Below, piece after piece: positions 499 through 64,000 of a stretch of DNA of 64,000 nucleotides. Position numbers and translations under genes: made by a program. The stretch covers positions 9,481-73,480 of the forward strand of contig URQZ01000004.1 in assembly GCA_900550255.1 (NCBI GenBank), read 5' to 3'. Below the pieces are notes generated by a model. That model was given only the letters and a program-made list of their open reading frames with translations. It did not search any database and was not told the origin of the DNA. This stretch comes from an uncultured Mycoplasmatota bacterium (lineage in GTDB: Bacteria > Bacillota_I > Bacilli_A > RF39 > UBA660). The stretch's first letter is position 1. Each line of letters begins with the position of its first letter.

Positions 499-2253
499 CT
501 ATTCTTTATTATCTATTACTTCCTTCATCATAGAAATAAATTCATCTTGTGATAAAGTTGTTGTTTCTTGACTTCCAAACTTACGATAACTTATCTCCTT
601 ATTATCTCTTTCCTTATCACCAAGTATTAATGTATAAGGAATTTTTCTTGTTTGACTTTCACGCATACGATAACCAAGTTTTTCATCACGACTATCAAGT
701 TCTACTCTAAAATTATTTTCTCTAAGTAATTCTTCTACTTCTTTAGAATATTCTAAATGATATTCATTATTAACAGGAATAATATTTATTTGTGTTGGTG
801 CAAGCCAAGTTGGGAACGCTCCTTTTGTCTCTTCCATTAAAAAGGCCGTAAATCTATCAAATGTACCAAAAATAGCTCTATGTAATACTACTGGTACTTG
901 TTTTTCACCCTTATTATCAATATAAGATAAATCAAATCTTCTTGGAAGTAAGAAATCTAATTGACATGTTGATAAAGTAACCTCTGGTCCTACAGCTGGT
1001 TTTACTTCTACATCTAATTTTGGTCCATAGAAAGCTGCTTCCCCAACCGCTTCAAAATACTCTACATTTAATTCATTTAATACTTCTCTTAATTTATCTT
1101 CAGCATTATTCCACATTTCATCATCATCGTAGTACTTTTCTTTATCTTCCTTATCTCTTAAGGATAATCTAAATTTATATTCAGTAATTCCAAAATCCTT
1201 ATATACATCTAGAATTAGACTAACAACTTTTTTAAATTCATCTTTTATTTGTTCTGGCATAACAAACAAATGGGCATCATTTTGACACATGCATCTAACT
1301 CTTTCAAGTCCTTTTACAGCTCCTGATGCTTCATATCTAAAATCAGTTGCGAACTCACCTATTCTAATTGGTAAATCTCTATATGAATGCAATTTGTTTT
1401 TAAAAACTAACATATGATGTGGACAATTCATTGGTCTTAAAACAAATTCTTCATCATCAACTTTCATAGATGGAAACATATTTTCTTTATAATGATCCCA
1501 GTGTCCAGAAGTTTTATATAAATCAACAGTACCTACACATGGCGTATATACGTGTTGATATCCTAACTTTTGTTCTTTTTCATATATATAATTTTCTAAT
1601 TGTTTTTTTATTAAAGCTCCATTAGGTAACCATAAAGGCATTCCAGCTCCTACTAATTCATTAGTCATAAAAATATCTAAATCTTTACCTATTTTACGAT
1701 GATCACGAAGTTTTGCTTCCTCTAATTCTTTTAAATAATCATTTAAATCTTCTTCATTTTCAAAACAAACACCATAAATACGTTGTAACATCTTATTTTT
1801 AGCATCATTTTTCCAATAAGCACCACTTACTTTTAAAAGTTTAAAATATTTCATTGATTTAGTTGTAGGCATATGTGGACCACAACACAAATCAATAAAA
1901 TCATCTTGTTTATAAGCAGAAATTACTGTATCATCTTCATCCATTCTTTCAATTAAATCAATTTTATATGGGTCATCTTTAAACATATCTAATGCTTCTT
2001 TTTTTGATAATTCAATACGATTAATATATTTATCTCCTTTAGAGATTTTTTTCATTTCTTTTTCTATTTTAGGTAAATCTTCTTCTTTAATTACATCATC
2101 GCCTAAATCTATGTCATAATAAAATCCACTATCAATTACAGGTCCTACCCAAAATTTAGCATTTGGATATAAGTGTTTTACCGCATGAGCAAGTAAATGC
2201 GCACAACTATGATTTAAAATATTCAATTTTTCATTTTCTTTTATATTTATCAT
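499..2253 (-). CDS. thrS: threonine--tRNA ligase (ThrRS), short form lacking the N-terminal TGS domain
   Basis: The translation starts at the N2 editing-domain block 'HSCAHLLAHAV...VGPVIDSGFYYD'. Class II motifs are present (e.g. 'RVRCMCQNDAHLF', 'FRLSLRD') and the C-terminal anticodon-binding region is intact. The start codon overlaps the upstream ORF stop as TAATG. A T-box leader lies upstream of the operon. Confidence 0.95.
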   Translation of the reverse strand: MINIKENEKLNILNHSCAHLLAHAVKHLYPNAKFWVGPVIDSGFYYDIDLGDDVIKEEDLPKIEKEMKKISKGDKYINRIELSKKEALDMFKDDPYKIDLIERMDEDDTVISAYKQDDFIDLCCGPHMPTTKSMKYFKLLKVSGAYWKNDAKNKMLQRIYGVCFENEEDLNDYLKELEEAKLRDHRKIGKDLDIFMTNELVGAGMPLWLPNGALIKKQLENYIYEKEQKLGYQHVYTPCVGTVDLYKTSGHWDHYKENMFPSMKVDDEEFVLRPMNCPHHMLVFKNKLHSYRDLPIRIGEFATDFRYEASGAVKGLERVRCMCQNDAHLFVMPEQIKDEFKKVVSLILDVYKDFGITEYKFRLSLRDKEDKEKYYDDDEMWNNAEDKLREVLNELNVEYFEAVGEAAFYGPKLDVEVKPAVGPEVTLSTCQLDFLLPRRFDLSYIDNKGEKQVPVVLHRAIFGTFDRFTAFLMEETKGAFPTWLAPTQINIIPVNNEYHLEYSKEVEELLRENNFRVELDSRDEKLGYRMRESQTRKIPYTLILGDKERDNKEISYRKFGSQETTTLSQDEFISMMKEVIDNKE

Positions 2254-2759
2254 TAATATCTTCCTTTTCCTTTAATATGTCTTTGACTATTTAATATATA
2301 TTTCTTTTGTCTATTTACACTAACAGTAATAACTAATTCCTCTTCCTCTGGAATTTTATCTACTACATTACCTAGCCAATCTTCTTCTAAATTTTCTTCA
2401 CTTAAAATTGCTTTTCTAATTAAACGTAATTTTTTATAATCCTTAGTTGTTTGAAGCTCCTTTAAAAGTTTTCCAAATTTTAAAACTAATGGATTTTCAT
2501 AAGCAATCATTTTTCCTTTTTTCTTTTTACTACTTTCTTCTCTTACTAAAACATAAGTTCCATTATTCAACGTTTGATCATTTACTTCTTTCAAACTTAC
2601 TCTAGTTGGTAAAGCCTCACCTTTTTCCATTAAATATTCAAACATTTTATAATGCGTTAATTTACCTGTATTCTCATATTTGACATTTAAATAAGTTTCC
2701 ATAAACTCTCTAATTCCAATTACTTGATTTAAACTTACAATTGTTCTGTTTTTTCCCAT
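2253..2759 (-). CDS. hypothetical 168-aa protein, first cistron of the T-box-regulated thrS operon, translationally coupled to thrS
   Basis: An AGGGAG RBS sits directly downstream of the T-box terminator. The stop codon overlaps the thrS ATG as TAATG. The protein is basic and Lys-rich. I recognise no motif. Confidence 0.6.
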   Translation of the reverse strand: MGKNRTIVSLNQVIGIREFMETYLNVKYENTGKLTHYKMFEYLMEKGEALPTRVSLKEVNDQTLNNGTYVLVREESSKKKKGKMIAYENPLVLKFGKLLKELQTTKDYKKLRLIRKAILSEENLEEDWLGNVVDKIPEEEELVITVSVNRQKKYILNSQRHIKGKGRY

Positions 2760-2774
2760 ACTATCAACTCCCCT

Positions 2775-2990
2775 ATAAAAAAAACACTCCTACTAACCAA
2801 GGAGCGTATAAACGCGGTACCATCCTACCTTATAACTTAATTAAAGTTTTAACGGACCAATCCGGAAATCTCTTTCGAGTTCAATTCATGGGTAGTAATT
2901 ATCAATTATTATATCAGTTTTCACCACCACTGACTCTCTTTAATAAAGTCCTCAATAACCATGTCCCACTCAAAATTTTTAACTATGTCT
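2775..2990 (-). promoter_or_regulatory. T-box riboswitch leader of the thrS operon
   Basis: On the minus strand the conserved T-box sequence reads 'AAGGTAGGATGGTACCGCG' (plus strand 2813..2832 'cgcggtaccatcctacctta'). It is followed by a terminator hairpin (GCTCCT...AGGAG) and a U-run (plus 2777..2808). Upstream there is an AGAGA-containing stem I region that includes an ACU triplet consistent with a Thr specifier. Confidence 0.8.
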
Positions 2991-23854: not shown

Positions 23855-25534
23855 CTACATTTTATTTGGCATCTTTATTCCAAGTAAACGCATTCCTTCT
23901 GTCAAAACAACTCCAACACATTTACTTAGCGCTAAATTAAAGTTTGTTTTGTTATTATTATCATCAATGATTTTAACATTTGCATACATTTTATTAAAAT
24001 CACTACTTAAATTAAGTAAATATTTTGCAATTTCTGATGGGTCATAATTATCTTTTGATTTAACAACCACTTCAGGAAATTCATATAAATCAAATATAAC
24101 ATTCCATATAGTATCATTTATATCTATCTCATCATAATTTATGTCATTTTCTTTATAATGTTCTAACAATGAATTAATTCTTGCATTAGTATATTGAATA
24201 TAAGGGCCAGTATTTCCTGTAAATGATAATGTTTCCTCTAAATTAAAATCAATGTCATTAACACGATAATTTTTAAGATCATTAAATATTACAGCACCAA
24301 CACCAATTTTTTTAGAAACTTCTTCTTTATCTTTTAAAGTTGGATTCTTCTCTTCAATATATTTATTTGCTAAAGAAATAGAGCTATCTAATAAATCTTG
24401 TAAATTTAATCCTGTTCCACCACGAGTAGACATTTTTTTACCATTTTGAAGCATAAGCCCAAAACTTATATGTTTTAATTTATTACTATCATATCCCATT
24501 TTACTTAGAACTCTTTTTAACTGTTCAAAATGTAATGTCTGTTCATTTCCTACAACATACAAAATTTCATCAAATTTGTATTTTTCTAAACGATCAATAT
24601 AAGCAGCTAAATCACGGGTAATATATATTGAAGTACCATCGCTTTTTTGAATTAAAGCAGGCACAATATCGTCACCAATATTTACTACATTTGCACCTTC
24701 GCTTACTTCAAGTAAATTTTTTTTCTTTAGCATCTCTATTACATCATAAGCTTTCTCTTTATAATAAGCTTCTCCATTATATTCATCGAAATCACTAATT
24801 CCTAAAATTTTATAAGTTTTTTTGAAATCTTTTAAAGACTCCTCTTTAAACCAATTCCATAATTTTAAAGCTTCAGGATCATTATTTTCTAATTTTCTAA
24901 ACCAAATTCTTCCTTGTTCATCAAGTTCTGGATTTAATTTTGCCTCTTCATGAAATTTAACATACAAATCTTTAAGTTCCTTAGTTGGATTTTGTTTTAC
25001 CTTTTCTTCATCACCCCAGGTGATATAGGCATAAAGAACCTTACCAAATTGTGTTCCATAATCTCCTAAAAAATCTAAACTATAAACCTTATAACCATTT
25101 TTTTCATAAATATTTTTAAGTGCTTCACCAATAACTGTACTACGTAAATGTCCAATTCCAAATGGTTTAGCAATATTTGGTGATGAATATTCTATAACAA
25201 TATTTTTACTATCTCCAATATTATTTGAACCATAATTATTTAGTTCTGTCATTATTTTATTCAGAATATATGAAACTATAACTTTTTTTTGAACAAAAAT
25301 ATTTAAGTATCCATTAACTACTTCTACTTTTTCGTATTTTTTTTGATCTAAATTATCTTTAATATAGTTTGCTATTTCAATTGGACTTTTTCTTAATACT
25401 TTAGAAAAAGTAAAACATGGAATAGCATAATCTCCCTTTGTCTTATCTTTTGGTTTTTCAATTATAATACTATTAATATCTATATCTTTTAATATTTTAA
25501 AGACATCTTTTTTTATTTCTTCTTTTATATTCAC
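23855..25534 (-). CDS. argS: arginine--tRNA ligase
   Basis: This is a class I synthetase. The HIGH-region block is 'SSPNIAKPFGIGHLRSTVIG'. A C-terminal DALR anticodon-binding domain is present. Confidence 0.95.
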   Translation of the reverse strand: MNIKEEIKKDVFKILKDIDINSIIIEKPKDKTKGDYAIPCFTFSKVLRKSPIEIANYIKDNLDQKKYEKVEVVNGYLNIFVQKKVIVSYILNKIMTELNNYGSNNIGDSKNIVIEYSSPNIAKPFGIGHLRSTVIGEALKNIYEKNGYKVYSLDFLGDYGTQFGKVLYAYITWGDEEKVKQNPTKELKDLYVKFHEEAKLNPELDEQGRIWFRKLENNDPEALKLWNWFKEESLKDFKKTYKILGISDFDEYNGEAYYKEKAYDVIEMLKKKNLLEVSEGANVVNIGDDIVPALIQKSDGTSIYITRDLAAYIDRLEKYKFDEILYVVGNEQTLHFEQLKRVLSKMGYDSNKLKHISFGLMLQNGKKMSTRGGTGLNLQDLLDSSISLANKYIEEKNPTLKDKEEVSKKIGVGAVIFNDLKNYRVNDIDFNLEETLSFTGNTGPYIQYTNARINSLLEHYKENDINYDEIDINDTIWNVIFDLYEFPEVVVKSKDNYDPSEIAKYLLNLSSDFNKMYANVKIIDDNNNKTNFNLALSKCVGVVLTEGMRLLGIKMPNKM

Positions 25535-25902
25535 TATATCGCCTCATATTCAATTTCATAAATATTTAGACCTAAATCTTCATTATTTATATATAATATA
25601 TATTCTATATATATTTTGTTATCTTTTATAATTAATTCCTTTGTTTTTGTTTTTAAATCTAGTATTCCGATATTCTTTATATCATACTTTCCTTCAATTG
25701 TCAAAAATTTTTGAAAATCCATTGTAATTTTATATTCATCAGTACTTCTAATTATTTTAATTTTATCATTTTGAATTTCAATTTTAACTTTTATTTTATC
25801 TTCATAAAAAGTTAATATTTGATTATTCAATATACCATTTATTTTTTTTTCAAAACTATTTTCTTTATTATTTAATTTTGTTTTAAGTCTAATTTTTGAC
25901 AT
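25534..25902 (-). CDS. DUF1934 (YwiB-like) beta-barrel protein conserved upstream of argS
   Basis: The start is reassigned to the ATG at 25900..25902 (MSKIRL...), which has an AAGAGGA RBS. The stop overlaps the argS start. An extended -10 (TGTTATAAT) lies upstream. Confidence 0.6.
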   Translation of the reverse strand: MSKIRLKTKLNNKENSFEKKINGILNNQILTFYEDKIKVKIEIQNDKIKIIRSTDEYKITMDFQKFLTIEGKYDIKNIGILDLKTKTKELIIKDNKIYIEYILYINNEDLGLNIYEIEYEAI

Positions 25903-25989
25903 AACATCTTCCTCTTTACGCAAGTAATTATAACATAATATATATCTTTTTAAAAGAAAAAATGTGAATAATTCACATTTTGTTAACAT

Positions 25990-58825: not shown

Positions 58826-59815
58826 TTAAATTCCTAACATTTTTATTTTTTTTCTAACTGCAATTATTGTTGCTGCAGTTAAAATAAATCCTCCACCATA
58901 TATTAGTCCTTTATCACTTGTTTTTGGATTTACTTCTGAATTTGTTTCTTTACTTGAAACAGATTTTTCTGAACTCTTAATTGACTTGAATTCCTGTGAT
59001 GCATAAGTAGTATCACCATCATCTGTCACTAGCATTACCCATAACACATAATCTTCCTCTGTATCTGAAGTTGGTTTTTCGATAATTTGATCATCGGTTT
59101 CAATCCAATTATCATCATTATATTTTATCACTTCATAATAATTATTTTTTAATTGAAATAATTTTGTCATATATGATTGTATTTGATTTTCTAAAGTTGC
59201 TTTACCACTTATTTGTTTCTTATATGTATTTATATCATTATTTTTGGCATCTATTTTATTACTAATAGTTGCTAAATTAGTTTCTTTTCCATTTTCTAAA
59301 ATAGCCAATTCTTGTTCCAAAGATTTTATTTTGTCATTATGATTAGACTTTATTTCCTCAATACTATTATACTGTGACATACATCCGCTATCATTAAAAC
59401 AACTTAGTTCTTGATCATAATTCTGATTTTCTCTTTTTATCTCAGCATTTTTATTTGCAATCTTAGCACTATATTCATTTTCTATCTGTATTTTTTCATT
59501 TTTTAATTCACTCAACTCAGATTGAGCACGATTTAATTTTTCTTCTACTTTTTGTATTTTTGATAATTCTTTTTTTGCGTCTTCCAAAGAACTATTATTT
59601 TTTGTAATTTCATTATTAATAGTCTTGATACTTTTTTTCATTTCGTCAGTTAATTTTATCCATTGATAATAAATTTTACCACTCGTTGATGGAGTTACCC
59701 TTACCCCTTGATTTCCTAAATCAGTAATAACAATACTATTTGCAGCCGAAACATTAATAAACGACAACATACAACCCACAACCACTAATTGAAATATTTT
59801 TTTCATTACACTCAC
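58826..59815 (-). CDS. secreted or surface coiled-coil protein with N-terminal signal peptide and C-terminal hydrophobic anchor
   Basis: The signal peptide is 'MKKIFQLVVVGCMLSFINVSAANS'. Long heptad repeats follow. The C-terminus is 'GGGFILTAATIIAVRKKIKM'. Confidence 0.5.
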   Translation of the reverse strand: MSVMKKIFQLVVVGCMLSFINVSAANSIVITDLGNQGVRVTPSTSGKIYYQWIKLTDEMKKSIKTINNEITKNNSSLEDAKKELSKIQKVEEKLNRAQSELSELKNEKIQIENEYSAKIANKNAEIKRENQNYDQELSCFNDSGCMSQYNSIEEIKSNHNDKIKSLEQELAILENGKETNLATISNKIDAKNNDINTYKKQISGKATLENQIQSYMTKLFQLKNNYYEVIKYNDDNWIETDDQIIEKPTSDTEEDYVLWVMLVTDDGDTTYASQEFKSIKSSEKSVSSKETNSEVNPKTSDKGLIYGGGFILTAATIIAVRKKIKMLGI

Positions 59816-59907: not shown

Positions 59908-59934
59908 ACAAAAAAACATGAGACTTTTCTCATG
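59908..59934 (-). terminator. terminator of serS, overlapping its stop codon
   Basis: The hairpin catgaga-cttt-tctcatg is followed by a U-run on the minus strand. Confidence 0.55.
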
Positions 59935-61213
59935 CTTTTTCTATTTTTTCTTTACCACCCATATAAGGTCTTAAAGCTACAGGTATTTTAATACTTCCAT
60001 CCTCTTGATAATTATTTTCTAAAAACGCAATCAATCCTCGTGGAGTTGCAAGAACGGTATTATTTAAAGTTGAAACTAAATAATTTCCATTTTCACCCTT
60101 AGCTCTAATAGATAGACGTCTAGCTTGTGCATCACCTAAAGTAGAACAAGAACCAACTTCAAAATATTTCTTTTGTCTTGGACTCCATGCTTCAACATCG
60201 CATGATTTTACTTTAAGATCTGCAAGATCTCCTGAACAACATTCAAGAGTTCTAACAGGAATATCTAAGCTTCTAAAGAAATCTACAGTAAACTTCCACA
60301 TTTTGTTATACCAATCCATGGCATCTTCTTGTTTACAAATAACAACCATTTCTTGTTTTTCAAATTGATGAACTCTATATAGACCTCTTTCTTCAATTCC
60401 ATGAGCTCCAACTTCTTTTCTAAAACATGGTGAATATGAAGTAAGAGCAATAGGTAATTCTTTTTCATTTAAGATTTGATTTTTAAATTTTCCTATCATT
60501 GAATGTTCACTAGTTCCAATTAAATATAAATCTTCATTTTCAATTTTGTACATCATTTCATCCATTTCTTCAAATGACATAACACCATCTACAACATCAC
60601 TTCTTATCATAAACGGAGGTATACAATAATTGAATCCTCTATCGATCATAAAATCTCTAGCATAAGATAACATAGCACTGTGAAGTCGTGCGATATCACC
60701 CATTAAATAATAAAAACCATTCCCACTTGTTCTTCCAGCCGCTTCTTTATCAAGACCACATAATGATTCACAAATATCTGCATGATATGGAATTTCATAA
60801 CTTGGAACAAATGGCTCTCCAAATTTCTCAACTTCCACATTTTCACTATCATCCTTACCAATTGGAACAGAACTATCAATGATTTGTGGAATAACTAACA
60901 TTTTCTTTCTTAATTCAGCATTTAAAACATTTTCTTCTTTTTCAATATCAACAAGTTTTTTATTTATCTCTACAACTTGTTGTTTTCTTTCATTTGCTTC
61001 ATCAACCTTTTTATCACGCATTAAAGATCCAATTTCACTACTAATCGTATTACGATCTTTTCGCATACTATCCCCTTGTTGTTTTAAACTTCTAATTTTT
61101 TCATCTAATTCTAATACCTCATCTACTAATGGGAGTTTTTTATCTTGAAACTTCTTTTTAATATTTTCCTTAACCAATTCTTTATTCTCTCTAACAAATT
61201 TAATATCTAACAT
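59930..61213 (-). CDS. serS: serine--tRNA ligase
   Basis: There is an N-terminal coiled-coil arm. Class II motif 2/3 blocks are present ('FRKEVGAHG', 'GSCSTLGDAQARRL'). Confidence 0.95.
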   Translation of the reverse strand: MLDIKFVRENKELVKENIKKKFQDKKLPLVDEVLELDEKIRSLKQQGDSMRKDRNTISSEIGSLMRDKKVDEANERKQQVVEINKKLVDIEKEENVLNAELRKKMLVIPQIIDSSVPIGKDDSENVEVEKFGEPFVPSYEIPYHADICESLCGLDKEAAGRTSGNGFYYLMGDIARLHSAMLSYARDFMIDRGFNYCIPPFMIRSDVVDGVMSFEEMDEMMYKIENEDLYLIGTSEHSMIGKFKNQILNEKELPIALTSYSPCFRKEVGAHGIEERGLYRVHQFEKQEMVVICKQEDAMDWYNKMWKFTVDFFRSLDIPVRTLECCSGDLADLKVKSCDVEAWSPRQKKYFEVGSCSTLGDAQARRLSIRAKGENGNYLVSTLNNTVLATPRGLIAFLENNYQEDGSIKIPVALRPYMGGKEKIEKA

Positions 61214-61214
61214 T

Positions 61215-61625
61215 TTATTTCTTCTCCTTCTTCTTTATTTTTTTATTATCATAACTAAATTCAACTAATTTTACTTTTAAAGCAATCAAATTATTACTAT
61301 TTATAATTCTTTCAATAAACATCTTTTTTGTTTCATCCTTTTCTTGTGTAAGTATCTTTATCGTGTTTACTATATCATCAGAAAAACCTACATCAAGTAA
61401 TTCCTCTGGAAAAATATTTATCTCTGTAATTATATCTTTTAGTAAAAAAACTATCTTTTCGGTAACAGAGTTCATCATATCACAATTAGAATATAATTTA
61501 TCTATATATTCATCTTTACTTTTATATACTCTATCAGTAATAATTAAAGCTTTATGATACATATCATCTTCTGTTTTCAGCATTCTATAACCTAATAGAT
61601 CAAAATAATTCAATAATCCATTCAT
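61215..61625 (-). CDS. small degenerate HD-domain (RelA/SpoT-hydrolase-like) protein, translationally coupled upstream of serS
   Basis: The start is reassigned to the ATG at 61623..61625, which has a GGAGG RBS. The stop lies 1 nt before the serS ATG. The blocks 'YHKALIITD', 'LLKDIITEI' and 'LIALKVKLVEFSYDN' align in order with the H / HD / 'LADRLHN' blocks of RelA/SpoT HD domains. HD is replaced by KD. Confidence 0.45.
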   Translation of the reverse strand: MNGLLNYFDLLGYRMLKTEDDMYHKALIITDRVYKSKDEYIDKLYSNCDMMNSVTEKIVFLLKDIITEINIFPEELLDVGFSDDIVNTIKILTQEKDETKKMFIERIINSNNLIALKVKLVEFSYDNKKIKKKEKK

Positions 61626-61639
61626 TTGATAACCTCCTA

Positions 61640-61835
61640 AAAAGAAAAAAAGACTAATTATAGGAGCAAAAATATGCGGTACCATCCTAATTAGTCTTAA
61701 TTTAAATAACGGTATTAACCGGAAATGTTTGCATTTCACTCAAGAGTAGATTCATAAAAGATTAATGTAAGTTTCCATCAACCACTTACTTTCTATAAAA
61801 AATTACTTTTATTACTATTCTCTATCAACGCTTTC
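61640..61835 (-). promoter_or_regulatory. T-box riboswitch leader of the (HD-like ORF)-serS operon
   Basis: On the minus strand the conserved T-box reads 'AATTAGGATGGTACCGCAT' (plus 61669..61688). It sits inside a long terminator hairpin agactaatta...taattagtct followed by U7. An AGAGAAAG stem I start lies upstream. Confidence 0.75.
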
Positions 61836-61841
61836 TCTTAA

Positions 61842-61870
61842 ATATTAACACGTTTTAATTATTTAGTCAA
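61842..61870 (-). promoter_or_regulatory. sigma-A promoter of the serS T-box leader
   Basis: On the minus strand the -35 is TTGACT (61870..61865), the spacer is 17 nt, and the -10 is TAATAT (61847..61842). Confidence 0.5.
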
Positions 61871-63458
61871 TCCTTTTATATTTTTTGGCTATCATCTCAG
61901 CCATTTTAATCCCATCCATAGCCGAAGTCGTAATTCCTCCTGCATATCCTGCGCCTTCACCACATGGATAAATGCCCAAAATATTAGAATTGTATTCTTC
62001 ATTACGAATTATTTTAACCGGTGATGAAGTACGACTCTCAACGCCAGCCAAAATTGCATCATCACTACCAAATCCTTTTATTTTTGTATCAAAATAAGCA
62101 ATTCCTTCCTTTAATGAATCAGATATGTAACTAGGAAAAATATCATTTAAATTAGCAAATGTATAATTTCCCTTAAAAACTGGTTTTATACTCTTAAATT
62201 CTTTTGATACTTTATTGTTACAAAAATCTTTATATAGTTGAATGGGAATTTTACCTTGACCAATCTTATATGCTTTTTCTTCTAAAGTACGTTGAAATTT
62301 AATTCCGTCTAAAGCATTAGGCCCAAAATCTTTTGGTGATATGGTAACAATAATTGCACTATTAGCATTACTACTATCCCTTTTATAATTACTCATTCCA
62401 TTAATAGCTAAACGATTATGTTCAGAAGATGCATCAACAACATATCCACCTGGGCACATACAAAAAGAATAAACACCTCTTGTACCTGCTTTATATGTTA
62501 ATTTATAACTTGCAGGTTCTAACATATCACTAAAATTACCATACTGGGATTTATTAATTAGTTCTTGAGAATGTTGGATTCTAATTCCTACAGCAAAAGG
62601 TTTAGACGTCATTTCAAGATTATTTTTATATAACATTTCAAAAGTATCACGAGCACTATGTCCAATGGCAAGAACAAGAACATCACAATTAATTATTTCT
62701 TGATTATTTACTTCAATAGACTCAAGTTTATTATTACTAAAAATGATATTAGTAAGCTTAGTATCATATCTAAATTCTCCACCATTTTTTATTATTTCAT
62801 TTCTAATATTTATAATTACATCCCTTAAAATATCAGTACCTATATGCGGTTTATTTACATACATTATTTCTTTAGGTGCGCCATGTTTTACAAAAATTTC
62901 AAATACTTTTTTCATTCTAAATTCTTTATCTTTAACAAGCGTATTAAGTTTTCCATCAGAAAAAGTTCCTGCTCCACCTTCACCAAATTGTACATTAGAA
63001 TTAAGATCAAGTTTACCTGTTTTCCAAAATTCTTCTATCGATTTTACCCTTTCTTCTACTTTTTTACCACGTTCAATTATGATTGGTTTATATCCATACT
63101 GAGCTAAAAGGTATGCTGTAAAAAGGCCTGCTGGCCCACTTCCAACTACTATTGGGCGGTTATTTAGTTTTTCTTTTCCACAAGCATTAAAATGATATTT
63201 TTCAATTGGTGATTCAAAAACATCTTTGGATATGTTTTTTTTCAAAATGTTTTTTTCATTTTCGATTTCAGCATCTACTTCATATATGTAGCAAATATTA
63301 TTCTTTCTTCTAGCATCTAATGATTGTTTATTAATTTTTATCGTTTTTATAGCACTATCTTTTATTTTTAATTTATGAGCTATATATTTTTTTATTTCAT
63401 TTAGATTATTTTTAGTTATTTCTACTTTTATTTGTCTTATTCTAATCATTATTTTCAC
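61863..63458 (-). CDS. FAD-dependent protein (COG2509-type uncharacterised dehydrogenase)
   Basis: The dinucleotide-binding motif is 'VVGSGPAGLFTAYLLA'. The C-terminal 'GEGAGYAGGI' is typical of this family. Confidence 0.65.
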   Translation of the reverse strand: MKIMIRIRQIKVEITKNNLNEIKKYIAHKLKIKDSAIKTIKINKQSLDARRKNNICYIYEVDAEIENEKNILKKNISKDVFESPIEKYHFNACGKEKLNNRPIVVGSGPAGLFTAYLLAQYGYKPIIIERGKKVEERVKSIEEFWKTGKLDLNSNVQFGEGGAGTFSDGKLNTLVKDKEFRMKKVFEIFVKHGAPKEIMYVNKPHIGTDILRDVIINIRNEIIKNGGEFRYDTKLTNIIFSNNKLESIEVNNQEIINCDVLVLAIGHSARDTFEMLYKNNLEMTSKPFAVGIRIQHSQELINKSQYGNFSDMLEPASYKLTYKAGTRGVYSFCMCPGGYVVDASSEHNRLAINGMSNYKRDSSNANSAIIVTISPKDFGPNALDGIKFQRTLEEKAYKIGQGKIPIQLYKDFCNNKVSKEFKSIKPVFKGNYTFANLNDIFPSYISDSLKEGIAYFDTKIKGFGSDDAILAGVESRTSSPVKIIRNEEYNSNILGIYPCGEGAGYAGGITTSAMDGIKMAEMIAKKYKRID

Positions 63459-64000
63459 CCTTTATACTTCTACCTGCCAACATACCACTAATCCAAGCAA
63501 AGCCTAAATTATATCCACCACAATCTCCATCAACATCTAAAATTTCCCCTGTTAAGTACAATCCTTTTATTTTTTTTGTTTCAAATGTTTTTATATTTAT
63601 CTCATCTAATGACACTCCTCCACTACAAACTTGAGCACTATCAAATGATTTAGTGTCAGTGATTTTTAATTTAAAACGATAAAGGTTATTGATCAATTTT
63701 TTCTTTTGAATTTGTGTTAGTTCATTTAGGTTTAGGTTATTATTTATTTTGGCTTCTTTTAATAAAACAGATACTAATTTATAATTTAGAACGCCTTCTA
63801 AAAGTTGTGAAATAGTTCTGTTTTTAACGATTTTATTTCTTTTTAGAAGAAAGTTTAAAACTTCTTCTTCATTTTTAAGCCATGGCAAAAAATTGATTTT
63901 AACACTAACTTTATGTTTTAGGCTTAAATATTTAGAAGCATATCTACTTAAGTTAAATACACATATTCCACTTATTCCATAGTTAGTTAATTGAATTTCT
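63442..64000 (-). CDS. HI0933/YhiN-like FAD-binding enzyme, C-terminal part; the gene continues beyond the window end
   Basis: The C-terminal block is 'GLYLTGEILDVDGDCGGYNLGFAWISG'. The reading frame stays open to the window edge. Confidence 0.6.
   Translation of the reverse strand, partial: EIQLTNYGISGICVFNLSRYASKYLSLKHKVSVKINFLPWLKNEEEVLNFLLKRNKIVKNRTISQLLEGVLNYKLVSVLLKEAKINNNLNLNELTQIQKKKLINNLYRFKLKITDTKSFDSAQVCSGGVSLDEINIKTFETKKIKGLYLTGEILDVDGDCGGYNLGFAWISGMLAGRSIKGENND

Follow-up and report, generated by a model that had tools for sequence, protein, structure and literature searches.

The window considered here, a 64-kb stretch of contig URQZ01000004.1 from an uncultured Mycoplasmatota bacterium, contains a serS operon in which a small open reading frame (ORF) of 136 codons lies between a serine-type T-box leader and the seryl-tRNA synthetase (SerRS) gene. 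In the textbook arrangement a T-box leader is followed directly by the synthetase gene, whereas the window and related uncultured Bacilli interpose a small alarmone hydrolase gene that is apparently coupled to serS. This raises the question of what the interposed protein is, and why it should be kept. The ORF, resident in the T-box serS operon, descends from an Aph1-type adenosine 3'-pyrophosphohydrolase and is very probably catalytically dead.

With regard to its identity, the ORF product is a true descendant of the Aph1-type small alarmone hydrolases, one branch of the RelA/SpoT HD superfamily. Searched against the PDB as a single sequence (phmmer), it gave one significant match, to entry 7SMG, '(p)ppApp hydrolase' (E=1.7e-4), and a profile of its ten closest relatives reached the same entry at E=2e-15. 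This entry is Aph1, the adenosine 3'-pyrophosphohydrolase 1 of Bacteroides caccae (Ahmad et al. 2023, PMC10083569). Against Pfam and NCBIfam the ORF returned no match even at E up to 10, and an ORF of this kind would otherwise stay annotated as 'hypothetical'. Only intact homologues gave weak HD, HD_4 or spoT_relA matches, those to TIGR00691 (spoT_relA) covering positions 4-149 of 687 and falling far under the cut-off. For the intact operon homologue P0015 the match to 7SMG was at E=1.9e-19, with further matches to Mesh1 and to Rel hydrolase domains. An exhaustive profile search found 7823 relatives, and in a table of 162 sequences, made up of the best 150 of these and the hits of the first search, about 130 keep both the HD and the ED motif.

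The AlphaFold2 model of the product has nine short helices in a compact all-alpha HD-domain fold, with a predicted local distance difference test score (pLDDT) of 85.7 and a predicted template modelling score (pTM) of 0.81. Four 7SMG chains rank first in Foldseek (TM-score 0.65-0.68), the best match having a TM-score of 0.67, a probability of 1.0 and a root-mean-square deviation of 2.3 Å over 112 columns; next come Mesh1, RelH (a small alarmone hydrolase of Corynebacterium) and the hydrolase domains of Rel proteins. Aph1, which is similar in size and likewise a compact all-helical HD fold, is thus the best match in both sequence and structure, and shares with the window protein R96, a GF(S/P)xxI(V/I) helix and a (V/I)K(L) motif. 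The window protein differs in having a 20-aa N-terminal extension and an 'IINSNN' insertion, both typical of the serS-linked clade, and in its setting, since Aph1 adjoins a MuF toxin. Mesh1, RelH/CgSAH, PaSAH and ATfaRel share the superfamily fold (Foldseek TM-score 0.56-0.61), but at 13-19% identity, with nine or more helices and with catalytic activity. A long RelA/SpoT homologue (Rel, RelA or SpoT) was rejected as an identity, the ORF being a single domain without the hydrolase-synthetase-TGS-ACT/RRM architecture, and no second Aph-like gene was found in the window.

Comparison with Aph1, using residue numbers checked on the 7SMG alignment and residue roles taken from PMC10083569, reveals how much of the active site is gone:

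Aph1 H33 (first metal-binding His): K43 in the window protein, within 'YIDKLYS'
Aph1 H53-D54 (the HD motif): K63-D64
Aph1 E57-D58 (the ED motif): T67-E68
Aph1 D110 (metal-binding Asp): E122
Aph1 R96: R106, kept
Aph1 D24/K25 (base-contact loop): absent through a 5-residue deletion
Aph1 D116, R119, K133 and Y134: gone, with a short Lys-rich tail instead, the chain ending about 30 residues early

The metal and catalytic set of the Aph1 family (H33, HD, ED and D110) is therefore not preserved in the window protein, and of the (p)ppApp specificity signature (D24, R96, D116, R119, K133 and Y134) only R96 is kept. A second allele within the species, allele B, changes further, from D64 to N64 and from K117 to Glu. 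Mutation of the HD motif to alanine is sufficient to abolish Aph1 function (PMC10083569). Hydrolysis is very unlikely because both His residues and the ED pair have been lost, and on these residues the window protein is, in all probability, no hydrolase. Nucleotide binding is unlikely as well, as the protein has also lost the residues with which base and pyrophosphate are held. The helical HD fold thus appears to be kept, metal binding lost and nucleotide binding probably lost too, and the protein is classed on its sequence as an Aph1-derived pseudo-hydrolase rather than a (p)ppApp hydrolase. Homology and motif loss, as expected of a pseudoenzyme, are both seen, and the frame is open in 13 of 15 contigs of the species, yet two alleles are frameshifted.

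The original prediction, which described a 137-aa RelA/SpoT-type HD mini-protein, is largely borne out by these results. The ORF is real, with 136 residues (137 counts the stop codon), its four quoted peptide blocks are all present, and the proposed HD fold is matched by 7SMG in sequence and structure; the superfamily is correct, but the protein is of the Aph1 type rather than a long RelA/SpoT homologue. The HD-to-KD substitution stands (K63-D64), as does the core call of a catalytically impaired HD pseudoenzyme co-regulated with serS by a T-box, which agrees with the residue losses and the operon layout. The block 'YHKALIITD' had been taken for the one carrying the metal-binding His, but it aligns with helix 1 of Aph1 (LLEKALQIA), the position of the first metal His being K43. 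The equivalent of the 'LADRLHN' block is V-E122-FSYD-N127, where Glu has replaced the metal Asp and the N114 position still has an Asn/Asp close by. The alternative of an alarmone or nucleotide-binding module is made unlikely by the deletion or replacement of the Aph1 contact residues.

Loss of catalysis in a retained HD domain of the RelA/SpoT superfamily has a parallel in the gammaproteobacterial RelA pseudo-hydrolase, whose inactive HD domain has a documented regulatory role (PMC8012599). That domain, however, works in cis on the synthetase to which it is fused, whereas the window protein is a stand-alone protein of 136 aa with no synthetase partner in view, and it arose within the Aph1 family, independently of the RelA case.

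The operon in which the ORF resides lies entirely on the minus strand of the window, and its features are as follows:

61842..61870, minus: promoter-like site (TTGACT, 17-nt spacer, TG-extended TAATAT), from a consensus scan only
61659..61837, minus: T-box leader, a tRNA-sensing transcription attenuator (Rfam RF00230)
61748..61750, minus: specifier codon UCU (Ser), located by sequence and cmscan alignment in the specifier loop of Stem I
61692..61674, minus: T-box core AAUUAGGAUGGUACCGCAU, inside the terminator hairpin, forming the competing antiterminator
61644..61698, minus: intrinsic terminator hairpin (61698..61650) and U-tract, from RNA folding
61633..61638, minus: ribosome-binding site AGGAGG, 7 nt before ATG 61625
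61215..61625, minus: the ORF, 136 codons plus TAA (ATG at 61625, stop at 61217..61215), degenerate Aph1-family homologue
61224..61229, minus: serS ribosome-binding site AAGGAG, inside the 3' end of the ORF
59930..61213, minus: serS, seryl-tRNA synthetase of 427 aa, an ORF whose ATG at 61213 is 1 nt past the preceding stop

The T-box leader, the ORF with its ATG and ribosome-binding site, and the serS start 1 nt past the stop are all where they had been predicted to be. The leader, with the promoter-like site just upstream of it, matches the full length of the RF00230 model with 94.3 bits, above the gathering score of 93 (E=1.7e-20). Its specifier context is GAA-UCU-A, a serine codon that agrees with the regulated synthetase, and the 'UCUACUCUU' specifier context recurs in the leaders of related loci. 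The terminator has a minimum free energy of -15.5 kcal/mol (z=-3.2), and none of 200 shuffled sequences was equally stable. By its score, Ser codon, core and alternative terminator and antiterminator the leader qualifies as a T-box for which tRNA-dependent antitermination is predicted. The T-box itself is ordinary, and in its Rfam-scoring leader, Ser specifier, core and terminator it resembles the class II T-box synthetase operons of Firmicutes (serS, thrS and others). Near-identical SerS homologues from the same species carry the Pfam domains Seryl_tRNA_N and tRNA-synt_2b, and the window SerS shares 99% aa identity with those of two conspecific contigs (L004 and L008). A GTG at 61739 was rejected as an upstream start (giving a 174-aa ORF), its first 38 codons being the T-box leader read as protein. 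Homologues begin near ATG 61625, which is taken as the true start because a Met-Asn-(Gly/Asn) start is common to most of the closest ones.

Translational coupling between the two cistrons is suggested by the 1-nt spacing and by the position of the serS Shine-Dalgarno sequence inside the ORF. Uncharged tRNA-Ser would stabilise the T-box antiterminator and so allow read-through transcription of both cistrons, and ribosomes ending the ORF would reinitiate on serS. Co-transcription and coupling of this kind seem highly likely from the arrangement of the genes.

Conservation of the gene upstream of serS in relatives, which had been proposed as a check, was confirmed. The Aph-like gene lies directly 5' of serS in 22 related loci, most of them from uncultured gut Bacilli or Firmicutes; these comprise three more distant metagenomic contigs (L001-L003), 13 loci from metagenome-assembled genomes (MAGs; L010-L022), mostly labelled 'uncultured Bacilli' or 'Firmicutes', and L027-L032. 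The same placement is seen in the conspecific contigs L004-L009, and serS is directly downstream of every within-clade relative of the ORF for which a contig position was available. The gap from stop to start is 1 nt in the window and in 14 of 17 serS-linked homologous loci, the others having an overlap or a 44-nt gap. A Ser T-box leader is visible upstream in most of the 22 loci, wherever the upstream sequence is long enough, as judged by Rfam scan and by eye where the Rfam filters missed it. In some loci the T-box precedes an extra first cistron, either an M19 dipeptidase gene (L001, L002 and L027) or a DUF1653 gene (L029). In L010 and L011 another, unannotated coding gene lies directly upstream, and no leader was seen in the 330 nt inspected. 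The three-gene T-box operon of M19-family membrane dipeptidase, Aph-like gene and serS spans, for example, L001:1662-3874 and L027:1889-4729. One locus, L022:4479-7147, is labelled 'uncultured Muribaculaceae', but is probably mis-binned because its SerS is 78-83% identical to that of the window; it has two tandem serS copies after the Aph-like gene, the first one shorter (412 aa).

Most of these relatives are intact, with every catalytic and specificity residue of Aph1 retained in the majority. All Aph1 catalytic residues and nearly all signature residues are kept in 12 of the 13 MAG proteins and in L001 and L003, that is H33, HD, ED, D110 and N114 together with D24, R96, D116, R119, K133 and Y134. 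All 12 Aph homologues tested previously hydrolyse (p)ppApp (PMC10083569), and the intact relatives are, judging by their residues, presumably active (p)ppApp-type hydrolases. Some small alarmone hydrolases act on 3'-pyrophosphorylated tRNA CCA ends (bioRxiv 10.1101/2021.04.30.441581), an activity that links this class to aminoacylation, so that by analogy (p)ppApp hydrolysis and removal of 3'-pyrophosphate from tRNA CCA ends are both plausible candidate activities. No serS linkage is seen for the Aph homologues of Proteobacteria, Bacteroidales and Ruminococcus (L023-L026), and their proteins are without the 20-residue N-terminal extension and the 'IINSNN' insertion of the serS-linked clade. 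As relatives at the same position are mostly intact, the ancestral state was an apparently active Aph-type hydrolase in a T-box(Ser) serS operon. In this lineage of AT-rich uncultured gut Bacilli the Aph-like gene is a resident part of the serS operon, which runs from a promoter and a Ser (UCU) T-box leader, in some cases through an M19 dipeptidase or DUF1653 gene, to the Aph-like gene and serS.

The window copy is not alone in having degenerated, as substitutions at the catalytic positions occur in other copies:

P0068/L027: H33C, D54N and D58A, C-terminally truncated
P0029/L029: H53R, E57G, D58N and D110Y
P0039/L031: H33D, H53Q, D54N and D110S
L015 and P0021: ED to KE
P0121: H33Y, H53Y and D54N, with a genomic context outside those checked

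The context was checked for P0068, P0029, P0039 and L015, and all four are still immediately upstream of serS. In a neighbor-joining tree of SerS the window forms a clade with L027, beside the intact L010 and L011, while L029 (with L015) and L031 are placed elsewhere. This suggests at least three independent losses of catalysis.

The literature searched, which excluded the supplementary neighbourhood tables of the Aph1 paper, held no description of a T-box-Aph-serS arrangement, and nothing relevant was found on a T-box-regulated small alarmone hydrolase or on an Aph pseudoenzyme. The Aph1 paper names 'translation' as just one of several neighbourhood themes (PMC10083569). What therefore appears to be new is the T-box/small alarmone hydrolase/serS architecture across the lineage, together with its repeated losses of catalysis, and the conserved operon is of more interest than the dead copy in the window. 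A lineage-wide Aph-type hydrolase under the predicted control of uncharged tRNA-Ser bears on the physiological role of (p)ppApp hydrolases beyond toxin-immunity pairs. It connects tRNA charging with adenosine 3'-pyrophosphate chemistry in a way that can be tested, be the substrate an alarmone or the pyrophosphorylated CCA end of a tRNA. The window copy and those of at least three other lineages, in which catalysis is lost and the gene stays, form a natural experiment on a non-hydrolytic role.

Why the dead copy is kept can be approached through its variation within the species, for which 15 conspecific contigs, several of them labelled human gut metagenome assemblies, were compared:

Haplotype A (the window): 5 contigs
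Haplotype B: 3 contigs
Haplotype C: 2 contigs
A/B mosaic: 2 contigs
Single variant: 1 contig
Frameshifted: 2 contigs (L033 and L034)

The two frameshifts are a 2-nt deletion in GATGATATAG (L033:2501-2909) and a homopolymer change from T7 to T8 (L034:506-835), and serS is intact in both; the residual 53-aa ORF of L033 still stops 1 nt before serS. The ratio of nonsynonymous to synonymous divergence (dN/dS, NG86) between alleles is 0.34-0.43, with A against B at 0.43. In a neutral simulation that used the observed mutation spectrum and stop avoidance the median dN/dS was 0.74, and 2.4% of runs were as low as observed (p=0.024). Only 3.7% of unconstrained mutated copies would stay open at the A/B divergence. 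The blocks that are invariant between A and B are motifs also present in intact members of the clade, and the former HDxxED helix and the C-terminal helix vary between alleles (LLKDIITE in A against LLKNVIME in B). There is, then, modest evidence for continuing weak selection at the protein level. Since alleles A and B have every degenerate feature in common, the loss of catalysis predates their split, at a synonymous divergence (dS) of about 0.43.

Within the species the ORF is also a sharply bounded island of divergence (the window against L004, L008, L040 and L041). Compared with L004 the ORF has 80.6% nucleotide identity, against 97.5-98.3% in serS and the upstream FAD-protein gene, and the T-box leader is 100% identical, as it is in L008. 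Synonymous divergence is 0.43-0.50 in the ORF and 0.06-0.12 in its flanks, a 4-5-fold difference; in L008 the divergence is confined to the N-terminal third of the ORF. In intact Aph/serS pairs elsewhere, dS is comparable for both genes. Relaxed constraint cannot explain the island, since it is unable to raise dS, and the candidates are long-lived alleles that the population has maintained, or import by recombination from a relative not yet sampled. Import of allele B from a lineage with a more ancestral gene was rejected, A and B being equidistant from intact homologues and sharing the same degenerate features.

From these findings, the Aph-like protein of the window may be retained by weak selection for a non-catalytic role, an explanation for which the case stands about evenly. 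The gene would be kept for the coupling of ribosomes into serS, for a clade-specific protein or RNA contact, or for both. The idea of a contact draws on the motifs that survive, and the N-terminal MNxLLNYF..EY..LK..DDMYxKA extension, GFSDDI and FIERIINSNN could form such a surface. Several points weigh against this explanation and the pseudo-hydrolase reading beneath it. Inactivity is deduced from residues alone, and the frameshifted alleles suggest that the protein is dispensable in some strains, unless they are assembly errors. The evidence for selection is modest (p ~0.02-0.04, from one allele pair), NG86 is biased downwards here according to the simulation, and intact family pairs have a dN/dS of 0.13-0.53, so that dN/dS can neither discriminate between the two states nor show relaxed constraint. 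Nor does this explanation account for the 4-5-fold synonymous excess of the ORF over its flanks. The number of three or more independent losses is tentative, because the SerS neighbor-joining tree on which it is based carries no support values.

The rival explanation that survives best is that the ORF is a decaying relic with no protein function, its frame staying open for read-through to the 1-nt serS junction or its deletion still pending. This is rather unlikely. In its favour, catalytic and substrate residues have been lost and the gene is truncated, substitutions between A and B are spread over the codon positions (33/18/28), and the frameshift alleles leave serS intact, with the remnant in L033 still ending at the junction. 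The gene also evolves faster than SerS, with Aph-like identities of 40-44% at a SerS identity of 82-83%, compared with 58-75% for intact pairs at a similar SerS distance. Selection for an open frame alone, however, predicts a dN/dS near 0.74 rather than the 0.43 observed (p=0.024), and a relic would not be expected to hold motifs invariant in A, B and intact homologues alike (the N-terminal 10 residues, DDMYHKAL, EINIFPEELL, GFSDDIVNTIKILT, FIER and SSNNL). The degenerate state, moreover, is older than the split at dS ~0.43 and yet survives at 134-136 aa, and degenerate copies are kept in several other lineages.

Retention for a non-catalytic role might take a more specific form, in which the function of the serS-linked Aph clade is tied to tRNA-Ser or SerRS, for instance through recognition or repair of 3'-pyrophosphorylated CCA ends, with the dead copies keeping the binding half. 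This is a speculative extension that we consider doubtful. If it were true, expression would be triggered by uncharged tRNA through the T-box, and the dead copies would be non-catalytic partners of the tRNA end or of SerRS, or decoys against toxins that pyrophosphorylate tRNA or ATP. It would explain the repeated loss of catalysis with the gene and its motifs persisting, the serS linkage and the unusually divergent alleles.

A further rival is a decoy or immunity protein under diversifying or balancing selection, which would neutralise a (p)ppApp synthetase or tRNA-CCA pyrophosphokinase toxin or bind pyrophosphorylated tRNA ends, and which would account for the very divergent alleles. Aph1 itself confers immunity to a (p)ppApp synthetase toxin (PMC10083569), and small alarmone hydrolases can reverse the tRNA 3'-CCA pyrophosphorylation caused by toxSAS of gut Firmicutes (bioRxiv 10.1101/2021.04.30.441581). 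The island (81% against 98-100% nucleotide identity, dS 0.43-0.50 against 0.06-0.12) and the mosaic haplotypes are in keeping with this, as is the lack of such an excess in intact Aph/serS pairs elsewhere. Overall dN/dS is below 1, however, the ORF has no toxin gene linked to it, frameshift alleles exist, and the setting is a non-mobile chromosomal housekeeping locus that is conserved throughout the lineage. Recombinational import of a diverged allele could give the same excess, and a decoy role is on this evidence improbable.

A sensor role, in which the protein would be co-expressed with SerRS as a receptor and its dead site would go on binding (p)ppApp, (p)ppGpp or some other nucleotide, is very unlikely. 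The fold is kept, D64, E68 and E122 are still acidic, R106 (Aph1 R96) is invariant, and the RelA pseudo-hydrolase provides a precedent as a regulatory switch (PMC8012599), but the residues through which Aph1 and Rel hold base and pyrophosphate have been deleted or substituted (the D24/K25 loop, D116, R119, K133 and Y134), both metal His are lost, D64 is Asn in allele B, and the former HDxxED helix is among the stretches that vary most between alleles. A still-active hydrolase with a non-canonical, metal-independent or Lys/Glu-based site is scarcely credible, for although D64, E68 and E122 persist as acidic residues in allele A and pseudoenzymes sometimes relocate catalytic residues (a general statement in PMC10211241), replacement of the HD motif by alanine abolishes Aph1 function (PMC10083569), at least six catalytic or substrate positions are changed or deleted, and allele B has the further D64-to-Asn and K117-to-Glu changes.

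Of the genes around the operon, two adjoining HI0933-like FAD-dependent proteins of unknown role are encoded upstream (61863..63888, minus). The first is an ORF of 531 aa (61863..63458), called as 528 aa in relatives; the second is cut by the window end and has 409 aa in L004 and L008, and the pair is syntenic in the conspecific contigs. The gene after serS (58826..59815, minus) encodes 329 aa and, going by the translation as inspected by eye, may specify a surface protein, since hydrophobic stretches at its N-terminus and in its C-terminal part enclose a middle region rich in Lys, Glu and Asn. Nucleotide similarity to L004 ends right after serS, at 59910, and L008 remains collinear; the locus downstream of serS looks strain-variable.

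The window also holds a thrS operon (499..2982, minus) with the same three-part layout of T-box, small ORF and synthetase:

2982..2797, minus: thrS T-box leader (Rfam 85.7 bits, below gathering)
2759..2253, minus: thrS leader cistron, 168 aa, its stop overlapping the thrS start

The original prediction had drawn a parallel between the two operons, and the thrS leader cistron does exist, but it is not homologous to the serS-linked ORF, and a paralogous relationship was rejected (BLASTP E=6.8). The 168-aa protein has no Pfam or NCBIfam match, occurs at 59-99% identity in 21 database clusters annotated as 'hypothetical', and gave a poor AlphaFold2 model (pLDDT 59) with only weak, meaningless winged-helix-like Foldseek matches. 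The ThrRS has 584 aa, and its Pfam scan gave no TGS-domain match. Bacillus ThrS is about 640 aa long, so that the window ThrRS is about 60 aa shorter. At argS (559 aa; 23855..25989, minus) the Rfam scan of the window found no T-box at gathering score. This gene is preceded directly by a DUF1934 gene (151 aa), the stop of which meets the argS start, so that argS joins serS and thrS as a synthetase gene of the window that lies behind a small cistron.

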